A stretch of 64,000 nt of DNA from an uncultured Gammaproteobacteria bacterium (GCA_964596735.1 CAZQVF010000005.1:13328-77327), one strand, 5' to 3'. Shown: positions 149 to 59,006, counted from the stretch's first letter. Notes: a model not told the origin generated them from the sequence alone. Numbers and translations: made by a program.

Positions 149-1549
149 ATGAAACGAATTCAAAGCGAAGAAACAATTAATAAAATTAAAAAAGAAGTTA
201 AGCTTTGTGGTTGGGTAAACAGCCGTCGCAACATGGGTAAAATTGTTTTTATTGATTTAAGAGACCGTTCTGGCTTAGTCCAGATTGTTTTTATTCCCCA
301 AGAACTTGATCAAGAATCGCAAAAAGCAGTTAAAGAAACTCGACCTGAATTTGTTGTTGAGGTTAAAGGGGTTGTCCGTCTAAGACCGAAAAATCAAATT
401 AACAAAGATTTAATAAGCGGAAAAATAGAAATCTTAGCTAAAAAATTATCTATTTTAAATCAAGCTAAGACTACGCCATTTGAAATTGACAATGAAACCC
501 TTAAAGCCAACGAAGAACTTCGTCTAAAATACCGTTATTTAGACTTGCGGCATGAACGCATGAAAAATAATCTAATTCTTCGTCATCAAGTTATCAAATT
601 TATCCGTGATTATTTAGATAAAGAAAAATTTTTAGAAATTGAAACACCAATTCTAACTAAAGGCACACCAGAAGGTGCTAGAGAATTTATTATTCCTTCT
701 CGACTTTATCCTGGAAAATTCTATGTTCTCCCTCAAGCCCCTCAACAATTTAAACAACTTTTAATGGTTGCTGGTGTTGAAAAATATTTCCAAATTGCTC
801 GTTGTTTTCGTGATGAAGACACGCGGGGTGATCGTCAACCAGAATTTACTCAATTAGACATTGAAATGAGTTTTGTTGATCAGCATGAGATAATGGATTT
901 AATTGAAAAATTAACTATTGCCCTGATTAAAAAGATAGCTCCAAAAAAGAGAATTTTAACTAAACCCTTTCCCAGGATTACTTATGAACAGGCAATAAAA
1001 AAATATAAAACTGATAAGCCTGATCTAAGAAAGAATAAAAAAGATCCTAATGAACTAGCCTTTTGCTTTATCACAGACTTTCCTCTTTTTCAGTATTCAA
1101 AAACAGAAAAGAAAAATATCTCTGTACACCACCCTTTTACTGCCCCTCAAAAAAAAGATATCCCTATTTTAAGCAAAAAACCCCTAAAAGTATTAGCCCA
1201 GCAATATGATTTTGTTTGTAATGGTTTTGAGTTAGGAGGAGGTTCAATTAGAATTCACCAAAGAGAAATCCAGGAAGAAATTTTTAAAATTCTAAAAATT
1301 AATGAACAAGAAACAGAAAGGCGCTTTGGACACCTCCTTAAAGCTTTTGAATATGGAGCCCCTCCTCATGGCGGCATTGCTCTTGGCTTAGACAGAATAA
1401 TTATGATCCTTGCCAATGAGCCTAATATTCGCGAAGTTATCCCTTTTGCTAAAACAGCTGACGCCAAAGACTTAATGATGGGAGCACCAAGTGAAATTCC
1501 AGAAGAACAATTAAAACAAGCTCATATTGAAATCAAAAAGAAAAAATGA
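149..1549 (+). CDS. aspS: Aspartyl-tRNA synthetase, class IIb, short (archaeal/eukaryal-like, possibly non-discriminating)
   Basis: N-terminal OB anticodon-binding fold, class II motifs FRDED...GAPPHGGIALGLDRIIMIL and FELGGGSIRIH. The ORF track starts at TTG 134; I prefer ATG 149 (MKRIQSEE...) because the codons before it belong to the conserved promoter cassette. Confidence 0.85.
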   Translation: MKRIQSEETINKIKKEVKLCGWVNSRRNMGKIVFIDLRDRSGLVQIVFIPQELDQESQKAVKETRPEFVVEVKGVVRLRPKNQINKDLISGKIEILAKKLSILNQAKTTPFEIDNETLKANEELRLKYRYLDLRHERMKNNLILRHQVIKFIRDYLDKEKFLEIETPILTKGTPEGAREFIIPSRLYPGKFYVLPQAPQQFKQLLMVAGVEKYFQIARCFRDEDTRGDRQPEFTQLDIEMSFVDQHEIMDLIEKLTIALIKKIAPKKRILTKPFPRITYEQAIKKYKTDKPDLRKNKKDPNELAFCFITDFPLFQYSKTEKKNISVHHPFTAPQKKDIPILSKKPLKVLAQQYDFVCNGFELGGGSIRIHQREIQEEIFKILKINEQETERRFGHLLKAFEYGAPPHGGIALGLDRIIMILANEPNIREVIPFAKTADAKDLMMGAPSEIPEEQLKQAHIEIKKKK

Positions 1550-2442
1550 GATTCTTTAGATTAGCTTTACAAAACTTTTTTAGAAATTTTTGGCTTTCTC
1601 TAACCAGTATTATTATCATACTCTTAATGCTGTTTTCCCTAAGCCTAGTTTATAGTTTTAACACCCTGGGCCAGCAAATATTAAGCTCTTTTAAAAATAA
1701 AATGGATTTGGGTGTGTATTTAAACCAAAACATTGATTTAAATCAATTAAGCCTTTTAAGGTCTGAGTTGGAGAATATGGATGAAATAAAAGAGGTATAT
1801 TATCTTACCCCTGAAGAATCTTTAGAAAATTTTAAAGAAAAACATGTAAATGATCCTTTAATTTTGAAATCATTAAAAGAACTGAATGAAAATCCCTTAG
1901 GAGGAGCTTTAACTTTAAAATTTTATGATCCTTCGGGTTATGAAAAAGTTATTTCAGTTATTAATCGTCCTGTTTATAGCGCTTTAATCCGAGATCAAAA
2001 TTTTTATGATTATCAAGAATTAATTCATGTTTTTAATCAATTTAATCAAAAAATTACAGGAGCAGGCTTAAGTATCAGTGGAATTTTTGCTTTAATTACT
2101 ATTTTGGTAATTTTCACCACTATTAAACTAGGGGCTCTTTCTCGTCGTCGAGAAATTAAAATTATGAGACTAGTTGGAGCTTCGGCCTGGTCTATTCGTA
2201 CTCCATTTTTAATTGAAGGTGGTCTATATGCATTTATTGCCTGGATCATAAACTCCGCTCTCATTATTCCTTTGGTCTATTTTTCTCAACCATATTTACA
2301 AAAATTTATTGAACTAGATTTTAATTTATTTATTTACCTGAAAACTGGCGCTTTTCATTTTTGGTTTGGCCTTTTACTCTTTGCTTTAATTGTTTCTCTA
2401 ATCGGTAGCAGTCTGGCAATTAAAAAATATTTAAAATTTTAA
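1546..2442 (+). CDS. ftsX: FtsX-like cell-division permease (N-terminal TM, extracellular domain, 3 C-terminal TM helices)
   Basis: About 300 aa, topology and C-terminal FtsX-like helices (RLVGASAWSIRTPFLIEG). No ftsE is adjacent. Confidence 0.55.
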   Translation: MRFFRLALQNFFRNFWLSLTSIIIILLMLFSLSLVYSFNTLGQQILSSFKNKMDLGVYLNQNIDLNQLSLLRSELENMDEIKEVYYLTPEESLENFKEKHVNDPLILKSLKELNENPLGGALTLKFYDPSGYEKVISVINRPVYSALIRDQNFYDYQELIHVFNQFNQKITGAGLSISGIFALITILVIFTTIKLGALSRRREIKIMRLVGASAWSIRTPFLIEGGLYAFIAWIINSALIIPLVYFSQPYLQKFIELDFNLFIYLKTGAFHFWFGLLLFALIVSLIGSSLAIKKYLKF

Positions 2443-3510: not shown

Positions 3511-3582
3511 GGCCAGGTAGCCAAGTAGTAAGGCAGGTGTCTGCAAAACACCTATACACGGGTGCAATTCCCGTCCTGGCCT
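3511..3582 (+). tRNA. tRNA-Cys (anticodon GCA)
   Basis: Manual cloverleaf: acceptor GGCCAGG/CCTGGCC, anticodon stem GGTGT/ACACC, loop CTGCAAA with U33 and A37, T-stem ACGGG/CCCGT. T-loop is TGCAATT (G at position 55). No encoded CCA. Confidence 0.8.
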
Positions 3583-55083: not shown

Positions 55084-56823
55084 TTAATGTTGTCCAGGGG
55101 GTAAAATTTTAACCCCCTGCTTTTTATTTTGTGAATATTTAGTGTGGCAAACTAAATGAATCTTTTCCTTTTCGTTTAAAAATTCTTTATAAACTTTTTG
55201 AACAACCGGATTTTGGTGTGCTGATCTAATATTTTTTCTTTGATCAACCTTGTACAAACCCTTAGCCCGACTCGCTCTGATTTCTGAATCAACCGGGACC
55301 GGCTGACCTCCTCCACCAACACAGCCTCCAGGACAGGCCATTACCTCAATATAATCATAAGCAGGAGAATCACTTTTTAGCTCTTTTAAAATCCTTTTGG
55401 CTTGACCAATACCATTAATTACAGCTATTTTAAGGATATGATTCTTAATCTTAATCTTGGCTCTTTTAACTCCATCCATTCCTCGAACCTGTTCAAATTC
55501 TAATCTTTTTAAAGGCTTATTTGTTATTTTTTCTACTACTGTTCTCAGGGCAGATTCCATTACCCCACCTGTTGCCCCGTAGATAACACCAGCTCCTGAA
55601 GGAAAGCCCAAGGGTGTATCCAGCTTTTGAGGAACAAGTTTTTTTAAATCAATCTTTCTCTTTTTTAAGAGACTGGCTAATTCCCTGGTTGTTAAAACAT
55701 AATCTACCGGCAACAAACCATTAATTTTCAGCTCTTTTCTAGCAATTTCGTGTTTTTTGGCTACACAAGGCATAATAGAGACAACAATAATTTTCTTTGG
55801 GTCGATGCCTTGTTTTTTAGCCCAAAAAGTTTTTATTAAACCTCCCAAAATTATATGTGGCGAGCGAACAGTGGTCAGATTTGGAATAAATTCAGGGAAA
55901 TAAAATTCAACAAATTTTACCCAAGCAGGGCAACAAGATGTAAACATGGGCAACCTTCCTTTTCCTTTTAACCTTTTAGTAAATTCCTCTGCTTCTTCGA
56001 CTGTAGTAAAATCCGCTCCTACGCTTACATCAAAAACTTTTTCTACACCAAGTTTTTTTATCCCAGCCGCCAACTTTTCAGTAATAAGCGTGCCTAAAGA
56101 AATATCAAACTCCTCGCCAATACTTGTTCTAATTGAAGGAGCAAATTGAACAACAACTAATTTATCTTTTTGTTGAAAAGGTTTTTCAATTTCTTCAAAT
56201 TCTCCAACCCCTTCAAAAGCTCCAGCCGGACAATGAACAATACACTGTCCACAATAAATACAATCCTTATTTTTATCTTTAGTAGGTAATATTTTTGTAT
56301 GTACTCCCCTGTTTTTCATTTCTAAAAAACCGACTCCTTGTTTTTCACACATTTCAACACAATTATAACAATCGATGCACTTGGAAGAATCAAAAATAAG
56401 AGAATTCCCAAATCGATAAACTAGAAAATCTTTTTTCCTGTCAATAAATCGATTAGTCTTGAGTCGCTGTTTCTTTGCTAGTTTTAAAAGCTGACAACGG
56501 GCCTCCCAAACACAGTCATTACATTCTTCAAAATGTTGAGCAAAAATTAATTCTAAATTGATTCTTCTTGCTCTCCTAATTCTTGGTGTGTCAGTCATAA
56601 TTTCCATGCCTGGCTTAACTTTAGTGGAACAAGATGTTTGTAAGTCTTTAATGCCTTTTATTTTAACAATACAAATACAACAATTAGACTTTATCTCTAA
56701 ATCTGAATGATAACAAAATGCTGGAATTTCAATCCCATGTTTTTTAGCCACTTGAAAAACTGTCTGCCCCTCAAAAGCCTGGACTTTCTTTCCGTTAATG
56801 GTTATTTGAAATCTTTTATTCAT
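55084..56823 (-). CDS. hydA: [FeFe]-hydrogenase catalytic subunit HydA (M3-type, with N-terminal 2Fe-2S and two 4Fe-4S ferredoxin domains)
   Basis: H-cluster motifs L1 TSCCPAW, L2 MPCVAKKHE, L3 EVMACPGGCVGGGGQP; ferredoxin motifs CIDCYNCVEMC and CIYCGQCIVHCP. Confidence 0.8.
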   Translation of the reverse strand: MNKRFQITINGKKVQAFEGQTVFQVAKKHGIEIPAFCYHSDLEIKSNCCICIVKIKGIKDLQTSCSTKVKPGMEIMTDTPRIRRARRINLELIFAQHFEECNDCVWEARCQLLKLAKKQRLKTNRFIDRKKDFLVYRFGNSLIFDSSKCIDCYNCVEMCEKQGVGFLEMKNRGVHTKILPTKDKNKDCIYCGQCIVHCPAGAFEGVGEFEEIEKPFQQKDKLVVVQFAPSIRTSIGEEFDISLGTLITEKLAAGIKKLGVEKVFDVSVGADFTTVEEAEEFTKRLKGKGRLPMFTSCCPAWVKFVEFYFPEFIPNLTTVRSPHIILGGLIKTFWAKKQGIDPKKIIVVSIMPCVAKKHEIARKELKINGLLPVDYVLTTRELASLLKKRKIDLKKLVPQKLDTPLGFPSGAGVIYGATGGVMESALRTVVEKITNKPLKRLEFEQVRGMDGVKRAKIKIKNHILKIAVINGIGQAKRILKELKSDSPAYDYIEVMACPGGCVGGGGQPVPVDSEIRASRAKGLYKVDQRKNIRSAHQNPVVQKVYKEFLNEKEKIHLVCHTKYSQNKKQGVKILPPGQH

Positions 56824-57809
56824 TTAGGTTGAATAACCTTTTTAATTAAAGTTGTAAAGGGCAAAGCCACATTTTTCCCAAAAGGACAAAAGCTGGTTTG
56901 ATCTAAGACAAATAATAAATCCCTAAGTGTTCTCTTGTCAATTTGTCTTTGATTTAAAATTTGCCTAACACGGTAAACCCCTTCTCTGCAAGGAACACAT
57001 TTTCCACAATTCTCTTTAAAAAAGAAATCAATCCATTTTTTCATTAAAAAATTTGGATTAGTTTTTCTAAGATTATAAACAAAAATTGTCCCGACTCCGC
57101 CTACTTTTTGGTTTAACTCCTTTAAGAGTAAAATGCGACCACTAGCTCCTCCTCCTGCCTGAACAAAAAAATCAAAGTTAGGCCAATTGTCTGTTTTTTT
57201 TAAAATCTGTTTCACGCTCAATCTTTCTGATAACTCATAAACATCTGGATTCTTTACCTTATTTAAAGAATAAAAGCGCGTTTTCTTGTACTTATTTTGG
57301 ATAATTTGCGCTATATAATAAAAAGTTTCTACATTGTTGACTAAAGTAGGATAACCCCAAAGTCCTTTTTCAGGCGGATATGGCGGGCGAGCCTGAGGGA
57401 TAGGATCTTTTCCTTCTAATGTTTGAATTAAAGTAGTTTCTTCTCCGCAAAGATACCCGGCTTGTTTTTTAAAAATCTTTATGGATAAATTATTAACTTT
57501 AATAATTTTTTCTAATGATGCTTTAAATTTTTGATAATAATCTTTACGAAGATAAATATAAGCTGAACTATGATCAATGGTTTTTAAAGCAATTTCGATT
57601 CCTTTGATTAATTCCTCTGGATAATTATGAAGAATAAAACCATCTTTAAATGTCCCTGGTTCTCCTTCAGATCCGTTACAAATAATATATTTCTTCTTCG
57701 CTGAAACCCTTTTAACCATTCCCCACTTTAAGCCAGTAGGAAATTCTGCTCCACCTCGTCCGGTTAAGCCAGAATCTTTTATTTTTTCAATTACATTTTG
57801 AGGACTCAT
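56820..57809 (-). CDS. NuoF-like NAD(P)H-binding flavoprotein subunit (HydB-like partner of the hydrogenase), short form
   Basis: GRGGAEFPTGLKW (NuoF FMN/NADH motif) and a C-terminal 4Fe-4S Cys cluster (CGKCVPCREG). Overlaps the hydA start. Confidence 0.7.
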   Translation of the reverse strand: MSPQNVIEKIKDSGLTGRGGAEFPTGLKWGMVKRVSAKKKYIICNGSEGEPGTFKDGFILHNYPEELIKGIEIALKTIDHSSAYIYLRKDYYQKFKASLEKIIKVNNLSIKIFKKQAGYLCGEETTLIQTLEGKDPIPQARPPYPPEKGLWGYPTLVNNVETFYYIAQIIQNKYKKTRFYSLNKVKNPDVYELSERLSVKQILKKTDNWPNFDFFVQAGGGASGRILLLKELNQKVGGVGTIFVYNLRKTNPNFLMKKWIDFFFKENCGKCVPCREGVYRVRQILNQRQIDKRTLRDLLFVLDQTSFCPFGKNVALPFTTLIKKVIQPK

Positions 57810-57863
57810 AGATTAGTTGAAAGTTAAGTGGTCGTCATCGGGGTGCCCGGAATCGAACCCGGG

Positions 57864-58727
57864 TCAAATATTTTCGATTTCTAATTCTAAAATTTCTGAA
57901 AGACGATTCACAGGAAATAAATCCTTAGGATATATTTCTATTAATTTAAGATTGCATTTTTTACAAATATTTTGTTTTTCCCTAACTAATTCGTCATATC
58001 TTTTTATTGCTCCAATTAGTCCAAAAAATTCTATAATAGTATCTTTAACGACAAAATCGGCTGTTAAAGACTTGTTTTGAGGATAAGGAACATTTCTTTT
58101 GTGCTTAATATTCTTACTAAGAAGCCAATCATCTATTATTTTTTCAGAAAAAGAATCGCATTTATGACCATCTTTGGCAATAAATTTTTTAGCAAACAAA
58201 ACTGGGTTAGGTTCAAACCCAGCGGATTTAACAGCCTTATTCCATGTCCCGAATCTTAGTCTCGCTGCATCATAATGATGATATTCTCTTTTAACAGGAA
58301 TTCTTTTTTCGCGCTTATAAAATGCTTTTATTTCATTGGTAATCTGCTTACTACTTACTACTATTTTAGAATTTATTAAATTGTAACAAGATTTTGAACA
58401 ACATTTTCGTTCACCAAAAAACTCTTTACCACAATTAATACATGTCTTACTTTTTCTCCTTTTTTGATTACTTACAATAGCAGCACAAGATTGGGAACAA
58501 AAAACCATGCCCGTTCTCGATTTTCTAATTTCAGAAGGCGGACGAATTACTATTCTGTTGCATACAGGATTTGCACAAATTCTTCTGACACTCCTGATTC
58601 GATCTTTCTTTAAACACTTTTGAGAGCAATACTGTTTCCAACCAAATTTTTTAGCTTCATTTACTCGCCCCACTGTTCTAAAAAATTTTTGACCACAAAA
58701 GGCACAATTAATTTTAACTAAATTCAT
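57864..58727 (-). CDS. Multi-zinc-ribbon protein with a homing-endonuclease-associated-repeat-like segment and a Vsr/DUF559-like nuclease-like C-terminus
   Basis: Several CxxC...CxxC pairs; YDAARLRFGTWNKAVKSAGF resembles the HEAR motif; C-terminal ...TADFVVKDTIIEFFG is PD-(D/E)xK-like. Confidence 0.3.
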   Translation of the reverse strand: MNLVKINCAFCGQKFFRTVGRVNEAKKFGWKQYCSQKCLKKDRIRSVRRICANPVCNRIVIRPPSEIRKSRTGMVFCSQSCAAIVSNQKRRKSKTCINCGKEFFGERKCCSKSCYNLINSKIVVSSKQITNEIKAFYKREKRIPVKREYHHYDAARLRFGTWNKAVKSAGFEPNPVLFAKKFIAKDGHKCDSFSEKIIDDWLLSKNIKHKRNVPYPQNKSLTADFVVKDTIIEFFGLIGAIKRYDELVREKQNICKKCNLKLIEIYPKDLFPVNRLSEILELEIENI

Positions 58728-58741
58728 AAAAATATTTAATA

Positions 58742-58815
58742 TCGGGCTGGCCGGCTCCGCCCCGGCGACCTCATCTCCCCCAGAGATGCGCGCTAACTAA
58801 CTGCGCCACAGCCCG
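58742..58815 (-). tRNA. tRNA-Pro (anticodon GGG) with non-canonical D- and T-loops
   Basis: Perfect 74-nt cloverleaf on the minus strand: CGGGCTG-TG-GCGC-AGTTAGTTA-GCGC-G-CATCT-CTGGGGG-AGATG-AGGTC-GCCGG-GGCGGAG-CCGGC-CAGCCCG-A. U8, A14, G19-C56, G53-C61, U33 and G37 are conserved; positions 54/55 are GG instead of T-psi; the D-stem GCGC/GCGC matches bacterial tRNA-Pro. It is a GC-rich island in AT-rich DNA. Confidence 0.55.
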
Positions 58816-58826
58816 ACATTCAAAAT

Positions 58827-59006
58827 CTAAACTCCAAAATTCTTTTTCAAAGATTTTAAACACTTGGTACAAATCTTTATCCTCTTGCCAGATATCTTTT
58901 TTGTCTGTAAATTTAAATATTGTCGCCTTTTTGTGGCGATATTTGAATGGGACCTGGTAAAGCTTGTTTGTGGACCACGTCCACAAATTGAACAACGTCT
59001 TGCCAT
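58827..59006 (-). CDS. rpmB: 50S ribosomal protein L28
   Basis: MARRCSICGRGPQTSFTRSHSNIATKRRQYLNLQ... matches the L28 family. The ORF track gives 58827-59054; the start is placed at the conserved Met (59006). Confidence 0.7.
   Translation of the reverse strand: MARRCSICGRGPQTSFTRSHSNIATKRRQYLNLQTKKISGKRIKICTKCLKSLKKNFGV

Follow-up and report, generated by a model that had tools for sequence, protein, structure and literature searches.

A tRNA-Pro(GGG) with a Rewired Elbow Has Probably Replaced the Canonical Gene, Together with a Nuclease Gene, in a Member of the Patescibacteria

Genes and Features of the Locus

We analyzed a stretch of 64,000 nucleotides (nt) of one strand (GCA_964596735.1 CAZQVF010000005.1:13328-77327; hereafter the window, with positions counted from its first letter), which is deposited under the name of an uncultured Gammaproteobacteria bacterium but whose organism is a member of the ultra-small Patescibacteria. 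Behind rpmB, the gene for ribosomal protein L28, lies a transfer RNA gene, tRNA-Pro(GGG), with altered D- and T-loops, followed by a gene for a zinc-ribbon protein with a nuclease-like domain and by the 3′ remnant of a second, canonical tRNA-Pro(GGG) (table 1). Taken together, these features suggest that a working tRNA-Pro with an unusual elbow probably replaced the canonical gene together with the nuclease gene.

Table 1. Coordinates of the Features Discussed in the Text
Feature	Position	Strand	Basis or remarks
tRNA-Pro(GGG), rewired-elbow class	58742..58815	(-)	ARAGORN, Rfam, minimum-free-energy fold, identity in L008, class covariation
3′ stub of displaced canonical tRNA-Pro(GGG)	57838..57866	(-)	Sequence; match to 3′ parts of L001/L006 tRNAs
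287-aa zinc-ribbon/Vsr-like nuclease, open reading frame (putative)	57864..58727	(-)	Pfam, AlphaFold (AF2) model, Foldseek, phage-protein matches
rpmB (ribosomal protein L28)	58827..59006	(-)	PF00830 homologues; synteny
nuoF-like gene	56820..57809	(-)	Directly after the tRNA in insertion-free relatives
tRNA-Cys(GCA), A18/G55 double change	3511..3582	(+)	D-loop AGTAGTA, T-loop TGCAATT

A Constrained tRNA-Pro(GGG) with an Alternative Elbow

The tRNA-Pro gene starts 11 nt past the rpmB stop codon and ends 14 nt before the zinc-ribbon open reading frame (ORF). ARAGORN calls it as tRNA-Pro(ggg) at 58741..58816 (-), and the Rfam model RF00005 aligns with 58742..58815 (-) end to end (model positions 1-71) at 45.6 bits against a gathering score of 29, although a whole-window search with the default filters of RF00005 does not return it. 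From 5′ to 3′ its parts read CGGGCTG, TG, GCGC, AGTTAGTTA, GCGC, G, CATCT, CTGGGGG, AGATG, AGGTC, GCCGG, GGCGGAG, CCGGC, CAGCCCG, and A. The stems of 7, 4, 5, and 5 bp are Watson-Crick at all 21 pairs, and the cloverleaf is the minimum-free-energy fold of the 74 nt (-37.6 kcal/mol). The z-score of this energy against shuffled sequences is only -1.99, because any equally G+C-rich sequence folds well; G+C content is 67.5% around the gene and 33% in the window. The original prediction, made from the sequence alone, of a 74-nt minus-strand cloverleaf with all stems paired, anticodon GGG, and U33/G37 between rpmB and the zinc-ribbon gene is thus borne out by ARAGORN, by Rfam, and by the sequence itself.

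The elbow of this tRNA is conspicuously different from the universal one. Its D-loop, AGTTAGTTA, has A18 and G19, and its T-loop reads G54 G55 C56 G57 G58 A59 G60. G18 is replaced by A and T54, U55, and A58 are each replaced by G, so that the universal elbow is absent and only G19, C56, and R57 remain of it. The loss of G18, the T-loop GGCGGAG, and the retention of G19, C56, and G53:C61 can all be read from the sequence as first reported. Features required for decoding proline codons are present, comprising a 7-nt anticodon loop (CUGGGGG) with U33, G34-G36, and a purine, G37, as well as C1:G72 and A73; the proline identity set of bacteria (for prolyl-tRNA synthetase [ProRS] of Escherichia coli) consists of G35, G36, A73, and C1:G72, and is complete here. 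No CCA is encoded at the 3′ end. ARAGORN finds only tRNAs for Cys, Glu, and Pro and a transfer-messenger RNA in the whole window, and no second tRNA-Pro. Codon usage, one of the checks proposed for this gene, shows that its codon pair is heavily used: the long ORFs of the window contain 272 CCT, 100 CCC, 233 CCA, and 62 CCG codons, and CCU plus CCC (CCY) account for 372 of 667 proline codons (56%).

Comparison with a relative's contig (L008), whose copy of the neighboring zinc-ribbon protein is 93% identical, indicates strong constraint on the tRNA. The two tRNA-Pro genes are identical at 74 of 74 positions. The window and L008 differ at 5/180 positions in rpmB, 61/864 in the zinc-ribbon gene, 70/1170 in nuoF, and 6/31 in the noncoding spacer before nuoF, and the synonymous divergence (dS) of the flanking genes is 0.17-0.29. 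The chance that 74 unconstrained bases would stay identical is about 1e-2 to 1e-7.

The window gene belongs to a class of tRNA-Pro(GGG) with A18 G19 in the D-loop and G54 G55 C56 R57 G58 in the T-loop, which we found at about 45 Patescibacteria loci, 17 through the neighboring protein and 28 through a DNA pattern in metagenomes (the true members among the first 120 metagenome matches, so at least 28). Loci with upstream DNA in which ARAGORN found no tRNA all read as tRNA-Pro(GGG) with a T-loop GGC[AG]G.. and D-loops such as AGATAGNNA. In an alignment of 13 distinct sequences, including those of the window, L033, L078, and L087, A18, G19, G54, G55, C56, and G58 are invariant (13/13), 99.6% of stem cells are paired, and both sides have changed in 14 of the 21 pairs. 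None of 500 shuffles reaches this covariation, and slid registers are only 38-50% paired. The anticodon loop (CUGGGGG or AUGGGGU), G37, C1:G72, and A73 are retained throughout the class. Across the Patescibacteria the class recurs with fixed loops and freely covarying stems, which shows that selection maintains both the cloverleaf and this particular elbow in the RNA. Because the window tRNA-Pro is identical in L008 and covaries within its class, it is more than a chance fold, and we conclude from these comparisons that it is almost certainly a constrained, functional tRNA with an alternative elbow, as originally proposed.

Standard tools largely overlook the class, as had been suspected. ARAGORN finds 2 of 14 class genes and misses 12, and Rfam with default filters likewise detects 2 of 14, at 40-43 bits, above threshold. 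Viral contigs of IMG/VR yielded 10 matches to the class pattern, none folding as a cloverleaf. The literature searched contains no description of a rewired-elbow tRNA class, which shows only its absence from that library.

Replacement of the Resident tRNA behind rpmB

The order M50 protease, rpmB, tRNA-Pro(GGG), nuoF, hydrogenase, smpB is conserved in relatives of the window, and rpmB followed by tRNA-Pro(GGG) represents the conserved ancestral arrangement (L001-L007, L011-L013, L018-L020, and others). The tRNA-Pro(GGG) behind rpmB is canonical in L001, L005, L006, L009, and L092, with GG in the D-loop, a T-loop of TTCAATT or TTCGATC, and A+U-rich stems (the L009 contig ends inside the tRNA, so only its 5′ part with the D-loop is readable). 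A zinc-ribbon nuclease gene is not seen after the tRNA in L001-L005, L006, or L092, and the L009 contig is too short to tell. In the window this gene lies between tRNA-Pro and nuoF. Homology between the window and L009 stops at 58840, 13 nt short of the end of rpmB, and the stems of the window tRNA differ from those of its relatives' tRNAs at nearly every pair. Its T arm and D stem are instead almost identical to those of tRNAs from distant lineages (L033, L078, L115, L121, and L205).

The remains of the displaced gene are still visible at the far end of the nuclease ORF. At the ORF's stop codon the window reads TGA CCCGGGTTCGATTCCGGGCACCCCGA, which comprises the last 29 nt of a canonical tRNA-Pro(GGG): a variable loop TGAC, a T arm CCGGG TTCGATT CCgGG, an acceptor strand CACCCCG, and A73. 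The TGA of the stub's variable loop doubles as the stop codon of the nuclease ORF. The acceptor strand CACCCCG pairs with the 5′ strand of the L009 tRNA (CGGGGTG) and not with that of the odd tRNA (CGGGCTG). The window shares the location of the junction, tRNA position 43/44, with L008, L011, and L030. The stub is decaying, because window and L008 differ in it at 2 of 29 positions, both differences breaking pairs, and the T stem has one mismatch in the window and a different one in L008. A canonical tRNA-Pro is present in the window only as a dead 29-nt fragment, and it is the odd copy that is perfectly conserved in L008; the finding named in advance as refuting a functional tRNA, a canonical gene elsewhere together with poor conservation of this copy, is therefore not borne out by the window.

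Other loci record similar events. L011 and L005 are 95-97% identical until 4 nt past rpmB and then have unrelated tRNAs, and both the nuclease gene and a stub are present in L011 but missing from L005. L205, which belongs to the same wider clade, contains after rpmB (1510..1734) a canonical 5′ half, an intact odd tRNA almost identical to that of the window, and a decayed canonical pseudo-tRNA in a row; the pseudo-tRNA scores 20 bits with CCA encoded, and the 100 nt that follow show no nuclease gene. Canonical tRNA-Pro stubs with broken stems follow the nuclease gene in many lineages. The T-loop of the dead copy is readable at seven independent loci (window, L011, L018, L029, L030, L038, and L205) and is canonical in all of them, that of L011 being one substitution off (TTTGATT), whereas the live copy is deviant in six of the seven. 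Because nuclease-free relatives are canonical at the same place and the window retains a canonical 3′ stub, the comparison identifies the odd tRNA-Pro, at the level of sequence, as an incoming replacement allele and not a vertically inherited gene. The original prediction had regarded the elbow as a lineage-specific trait; this part of it does not hold, as the nearest nuclease-free genomes are canonical at the same position, a canonical stub remains in the window, and the class is scattered.

The site downstream of this tRNA-Pro is a recurrent insertion point. In L006 (10302..11087, minus strand) and L007 (6623..7408, minus strand) the canonical tRNA-Pro(GGG) is separated from nuoF by a different ORF of 261 amino acids (aa), encoded on the opposite strand; it was considered as a member of the nuclease family and is unrelated. 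Two independent assemblies of the closest nuclease-free relative, L009 and L010, both break at the tRNA-Pro(GGG) site, L009 within the tRNA gene and L010 before it, as might be expected if the population carried more than one allele there. Further nuclease-free rpmB loci sought through the L28 homologues P0013, P0019, and P0020 had no tRNA after rpmB.

The Neighboring Nuclease Gene

The 287-aa protein encoded next to tRNA-Pro contains four CxxC zinc ribbons and the Pfam domain PF18780 (HNH_repeat, a homing-endonuclease-associated repeat), followed by a conserved C-terminal block with the motifs DGHxCDS..E...D..W, ADF, and IEFFG. In its family D186, H188, E195, D224, and E233 are invariant and D191 is nearly so; these are candidate residues for the composite catalytic motif (E, D, x, H, D). 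The AlphaFold model (pLDDT 82) matches the catalytic domain of I-Bth0305I (3r3p_B) in Foldseek with a probability of 0.99 and a TM score of 0.65 over all 98 residues; TnsA is also matched in the structure search. The model thus indicates a putative Vsr-type PD-(D/E)xK catalytic domain, and membership of the Vsr-type homing endonuclease family is suggested by fold only.

Sequence profiles point in a similar direction. Matches to viral models include phage "DNA mismatch endonuclease," DUF559, zinc-finger, and NUMOD proteins down to E 2.7e-11, with phage "DNA mismatch endonuclease" and DUF559 proteins at E 1e-9, and in PHROGs the middle part of the protein corresponds to an HNH-endonuclease family. 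Residues 164-281, the nuclease domain, match the uncharacterized PADLOC phage-defense candidate PDC-S69 (E 1.2e-12), a profile of 289 positions and thus of nearly equal length, and there is a weak match to an FCS/MYM-type zinc finger. NCBIfam has no match for the protein. The family has no relative in the IMG/VR viral contig collection, and this absence, together with the nonfolding viral matches to the tRNA pattern, led us to reject a phage origin. The gene is intact with a dN/dS of 0.106 relative to L008, and it shows presence/absence polymorphism at one site in a conserved target (L011 vs. L005; window vs. L001, L006, and L009). From the model and this distribution it looks like a free-standing homing endonuclease gene.

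Linkage of the Nuclease Family to tRNA-Pro(GGG)

To homologues of the nuclease, searched in one genome per species (80 loci; counts here ignore kinship), tRNA-Pro(GGG) is a nearly constant neighbor. ARAGORN places it beside the nuclease gene at 59 of the 80 loci, and overall it adjoins the gene at 74 loci or more; tRNAs of other kinds are almost absent from the vicinity. There are three arrangements: same strand with the nuclease gene downstream, divergent with a full-length nuclease, and divergent with a short form between rpmB and the tRNA. The nuclease family evidently accompanies tRNA-Pro(GGG) almost wherever it is present, and judging from the genome pairs compared it can be present in one of two near-identical genomes and missing from the other, the entire tRNA being exchanged at the same time.

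Linked tRNAs are also enriched in unusual features. Deviant variable loops, T-loops, or D-loops occur in 34 of 52 same-strand linked tRNAs compared with 2 of 20 other tRNAs and none of 5 unlinked tRNA-Pro(GGG). These deviations are concentrated at the junction and on its 3′ side; about 30 linked tRNAs have a rewritten T-loop, and variable loops of 6-9 nt (e.g., AGACATTTC) occur in 13 linked tRNA-Pro(GGG) (L011-L013, L017, L018, L024, L048, L052, L053, L056, L062, L063, and L070), compared with 4-5 nt in nuclease-free relatives. The pattern is patchy, which rules out clean co-inheritance of the tRNA class with a nuclease clade.

Two further observations concern these loci. In L068 (4001..4832) and L075 (4001..4848) the match to the nuclease gene is broken into two parts that lie in different reading frames, possibly through a frameshift or the onset of decay into a pseudogene, and the adjacent odd tRNA is intact. 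The nuclease-linked tRNA-Pro(GGG) genes of L019, L050, and L065 have C33 instead of the near-universal U33 (loops TCGGGGA or ACGGGGT) with perfect stems. The link between tRNA-Pro and a nuclease is not described in the literature searched, a statement about that library only.

Positions 18 and 55 in Patescibacteria tRNAs

We tabulated positions 18 and 55 in 127 distinct tRNAs from Patescibacteria loci, again ignoring kinship. All 73 tRNAs with U55 and all 7 with C55 have GG in the D-loop. With G55, the D-loop contains AG but lacks GG in about 40 tRNAs; 5 more have the ambiguous D-loop AGAYAGGNA, which by homology is A18 G19 G20, and 2 are otherwise different, both from one unusual contig. Covariation at 18/55, which had been put forward as a test of the alternative elbow, is found both in this table and in the class alignment. 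A requirement of G55 for A18 is what a maintained 18-55 contact would lead one to expect: O6 of G55 could act as acceptor for N6 of A18, the part that O4 of Psi55 plays for G18. A purine-purine pair of G54 and G58 could likewise take the place of the T54-A58 reverse Hoogsteen pair, and G55-C56-R57-A58 in loops of the TGCAA type may form a GNRA-like turn as a counterpart of the usual U-turn.

The tRNA-Cys of the window is a second case. As originally noted it has G55, and the tRNA-Glu of the window has canonical loops. Orthologues from two related groups (L238-L246) lie in the same setting, between queA and a 5′-3′ exonuclease gene, and are canonical, with a D-loop of AGTGGCA or AGTGGTA and a T-loop of TTCGATT. 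Relative to these near-identical genes the window tRNA-Cys has changed G18 to A, U55 to G, and G57 to A, and no nuclease gene is found near it. The comparison confirms, by all appearances, that it acquired A18/G55 in place.

Other departures from the usual elbow occur in the phylum. The contig L132 (Ga0182027_10139547, 2867 nt) has an array of at least seven tRNA genes, every one with G55 and a noncanonical elbow; their T-loops are AGCATGG (Met), AGCAAAG (Pro(tgg)), GGCGGAT (Glu(ctc)), AGCGTAA (Gly(gcc)), TGAGATT with A56 (Arg(ccg)), TGCAACT (Arg(gcg)), and GGCAGAG (Pro(ggg)). Either a lineage or a mobile element may have converted its whole tRNA set to a G55 elbow. A second type of variation at position 55 in this phylum is C55 combined with the usual GG in the D-loop, present in a tRNA-Val(cac) (L082, 4862..4934, minus strand; TCCGATC), a tRNA-Trp(cca) (L207, 410..481, minus strand; TCCGATT), and six tRNA-Pro(GGG) genes. 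Directly after tRNA-Cys in L241 (11257..11507, two copies) and L242 (11257..11399, one copy) lies an element of ∼108 nt, and at the end of each copy the 3′ end of tRNA-Cys is repeated (GATTCCCCTCCAGGCC followed by a run of T). The element has the appearance of a small mobile insertion directed at the 3′ end of the tRNA, which it restores.

A Model of tRNA Replacement and Its Alternatives

We propose, with a probability of about 0.7, that a working tRNA-Pro with an odd elbow replaced the canonical gene together with the nuclease gene. The sequences show that a segment carrying the odd tRNA and the nuclease gene has taken the place of the ancestral canonical tRNA-Pro(GGG) from the 5′ end through position 43, and that positions 44-73 of the old gene persist as a decaying stub whose variable loop supplies the stop codon of the ORF. 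We predict that the nuclease cuts the DNA of canonical tRNA-Pro(GGG) near the junction of anticodon stem and variable loop (43/44), and that repair copies in the nuclease gene along with its linked tRNA. The odd tRNA would then be charged by ProRS and take over the decoding of CCU and CCC, as suggested by its intact ProRS and TrmD determinants, the dead resident copy, and the 56% share of CCY. It is a tentative suggestion that the rewritten T-loop here and the 6-9-nt variable loops elsewhere protect the linked gene from efficient cleavage by the nuclease, in favor of which are the excess of deviant features in linked tRNAs and the canonical state of the dead copies. Canonical alleles would on this view give place to nuclease-resistant ones, and the independent tolerance of A18/G55 in the phylum would make such resistant alleles viable.

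Several observations weigh against this model or parts of it. The A18/G55 change of the window tRNA-Cys arose without a nearby nuclease. Among same-strand linked tRNAs 18 of 52 are fully canonical, and nucleases that are 76-78% identical to each other adjoin canonical and deviant tRNAs alike. About 17 of the 28 pattern-found class members have no nuclease gene in the locus and lie in ordinary gene surroundings, and an obligatory dependence of the odd elbow on the nuclease is ruled out by these 17. Such stand-alone tRNAs fit a cycle of nuclease gain and loss that leaves a resistant allele behind, and they fit simple tolerance of the elbow equally well. The match to 3r3p_B is weak with the whole protein as query (E 0.079), no hidden Markov model match to solved homing endonucleases was found at the sequence level, and purifying selection on the nuclease could equally mean a host function. 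The search for a canonical tRNA-Pro(GGG) spans the 64-kb window, the rest of the genome lying outside it.

The elbow could alternatively have evolved in place by vertical drift, with the zinc-ribbon gene an unrelated insertion. The tRNA-Cys of the window shows that G18/U55 can change to A18/G55 in place, many class members stand alone without a nuclease gene, and both C55 and G55 variants occur in other Patescibacteria tRNAs. This explanation is unlikely for tRNA-Pro, for which synteny and the stub lead us to reject it: at this locus the nearest relatives without the nuclease gene have a canonical tRNA, the canonical stub 0.9 kb downstream has an acceptor strand that fits the relatives' tRNA and not the odd one, the stems differ from those of the relatives at nearly every pair and the T arm and D stem are almost identical to those of distant lineages, and the whole tRNA is swapped between the 96%-identical L011 and L005. 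That the gene is a decaying pseudogene or a chance cluster of G+C-rich hairpins might be supposed from the loss of canonical G18, T54, U55, and A58, from its being missed by the default Rfam filters, and from the modest z-score. A pseudogene would scarcely keep 21 of 21 stem pairs perfect at 72% G+C in a 33% G+C genome, stay identical to L008 over 74 nt while neutral sites differ by 17-29%, or show compensatory changes across its class, and the true pseudocopies at these loci look different, their stems broken. Conservation in L008 and class covariation rule this reading out, and we give it almost no weight.

An RNA shaped like a tRNA but acting outside translation, either as a partner of the nuclease (cofactor, antitoxin-like, or decoy) or as an extraribosomal amino acid donor comparable to the cell-wall tRNA-Gly of Staphylococcus, is also improbable, but it is favored by several findings. 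These are the tight linkage of the protein family with tRNA-Pro(GGG) in several orientations, the match of the C-terminal domain to PDC-S69, and the purifying selection on the nuclease; an FCS/MYM-type zinc finger also leaves RNA binding possible. A nonribosomal tRNA-Gly of Staphylococcus likewise lacks G18/G19 and U55 (PMC4574755). Against such a role, the anticodon loop, G37, C1:G72, and A73 are retained as decoding would lead one to expect, many linked tRNAs are fully canonical and many odd tRNAs have no nearby nuclease, and the stubs record a DNA-level event inside the tRNA gene. The canonical copy has moreover been destroyed here, so CCY codons would otherwise need another tRNA. An extraribosomal tRNA would be expected to coexist with a canonical isoacceptor of equal anticodon that serves translation; within the window, the dead stub is the only canonical tRNA-Pro(GGG) sequence. 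The least credible alternative is a genomic island of the integrase type with the stub as its attR repeat. The 3′ ends of tRNA genes are classic integration sites and a tRNA 3′ fragment does flank the insert, but the only ORF of the insert encodes no recombinase domain, the difference between tRNA and stub involves the entire tRNA and not its 3′ part alone, and no direct repeat is common to the live tRNA (CAGCCCGA) and the stub (CACCCCGA). An integrase island is ruled out by the lack of a recombinase domain and of identical attachment repeats.

Comparison with Known Systems

Noncanonical elbows are known from tRNA-Pyl, from mitochondrial tRNAs, and from the eukaryotic initiator tRNA (A54/A60). 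The nonproteinogenic tRNA-Gly of Staphylococcus similarly has a noncanonical elbow and a retained cloverleaf (PMC4574755). The window tRNA resembles these RNAs in having lost G18/G19 and/or T54/Psi55 without losing the cloverleaf. It differs in apparently being an ordinary bacterial elongator for a heavily used codon pair, and in following a recurrent substitution rule (A18 with G55; G54 with G58) in place of loop reduction.

The best specific structural match of the nuclease, I-Bth0305I, has N-terminal DNA-binding modules and a C-terminal Vsr-like domain and cuts next to its insertion site, and the EDxHD or Vsr-like homing endonuclease family to which it belongs includes free-standing members (Taylor et al. 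2011, PMC3239194). The window protein shares the predicted architecture of an N-terminal DNA-binding region and a C-terminal Vsr-like PD-(D/E)xK domain. It has no detected sequence similarity to I-Bth0305I, four zinc ribbons and an HNH_repeat in place of NUMOD motifs, and a gene that lies outside any intron or intein, in or beside a tRNA gene, and appears to travel with a replacement tRNA.

In T4-type phages, free-standing homing endonucleases such as SegB are reported to be active in tRNA gene clusters and to co-convert flanking genes (PMC2988022, PMC13096335). The systems are alike in that a nuclease gene lies among tRNA genes and neighboring markers would be carried along in repair. They differ in that SegB is a phage enzyme of the GIY-YIG type, whereas the family described here is found in cellular Patescibacteria genomes, is absent from viral contigs, and is linked to one isoacceptor. 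In the Candidate Phyla Radiation (CPR), ribosomal RNA (rRNA) genes bear homing-endonuclease insertions of the LAGLIDADG or GIY-YIG type in intron-like inserts (PMC11270868). The phylum is the same, and in both cases selfish nucleases seem to colonize the most conserved RNA genes; the enzymes and the intron-like setting in rRNA are different, and that paper does not contain the word tRNA. As with integrative elements that target tRNA genes and bring in a copy of the tRNA 3′ part, the host is left with a functioning tRNA, and a fragment of the displaced one is found where the insert ends, but here there is no integrase and a complete tRNA is exchanged for an unrelated allele, not its 3′ part only.

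Implications

The rewired-elbow class represents an annotation blind spot. Because ARAGORN and Rfam with default filters each miss 12 of 14 class genes, Patescibacteria genomes may be wrongly scored as lacking tRNA-Pro(GGG). The class would be a bacterial elongator tRNA for a major codon pair that, by the evidence of sequence, works without G18, T54, Psi55, and A58, and it offers a natural alternative elbow to set against the contacts of RNase P, the CCA-adding enzyme, TruB/TrmA, EF-Tu, and ribosomal proteins L1/L5.

Across the phylum one nuclease family is linked one-to-one with a single isoacceptor, and remains of the replaced tRNA copies can still be seen; such a system would be a tractable example of intron-independent homing into an essential RNA gene. 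A broader and more doubtful extension is that Vsr-like homing endonucleases attack tRNA-Pro(GGG) and drive its serial replacement, and that selection for alleles that resist the nuclease but still serve translation rewrote the elbow or stretched the variable loop. If this is true, conflict with a selfish gene, and not translation itself, would explain the departure of a bacterial elongator tRNA from the universal T-loop.

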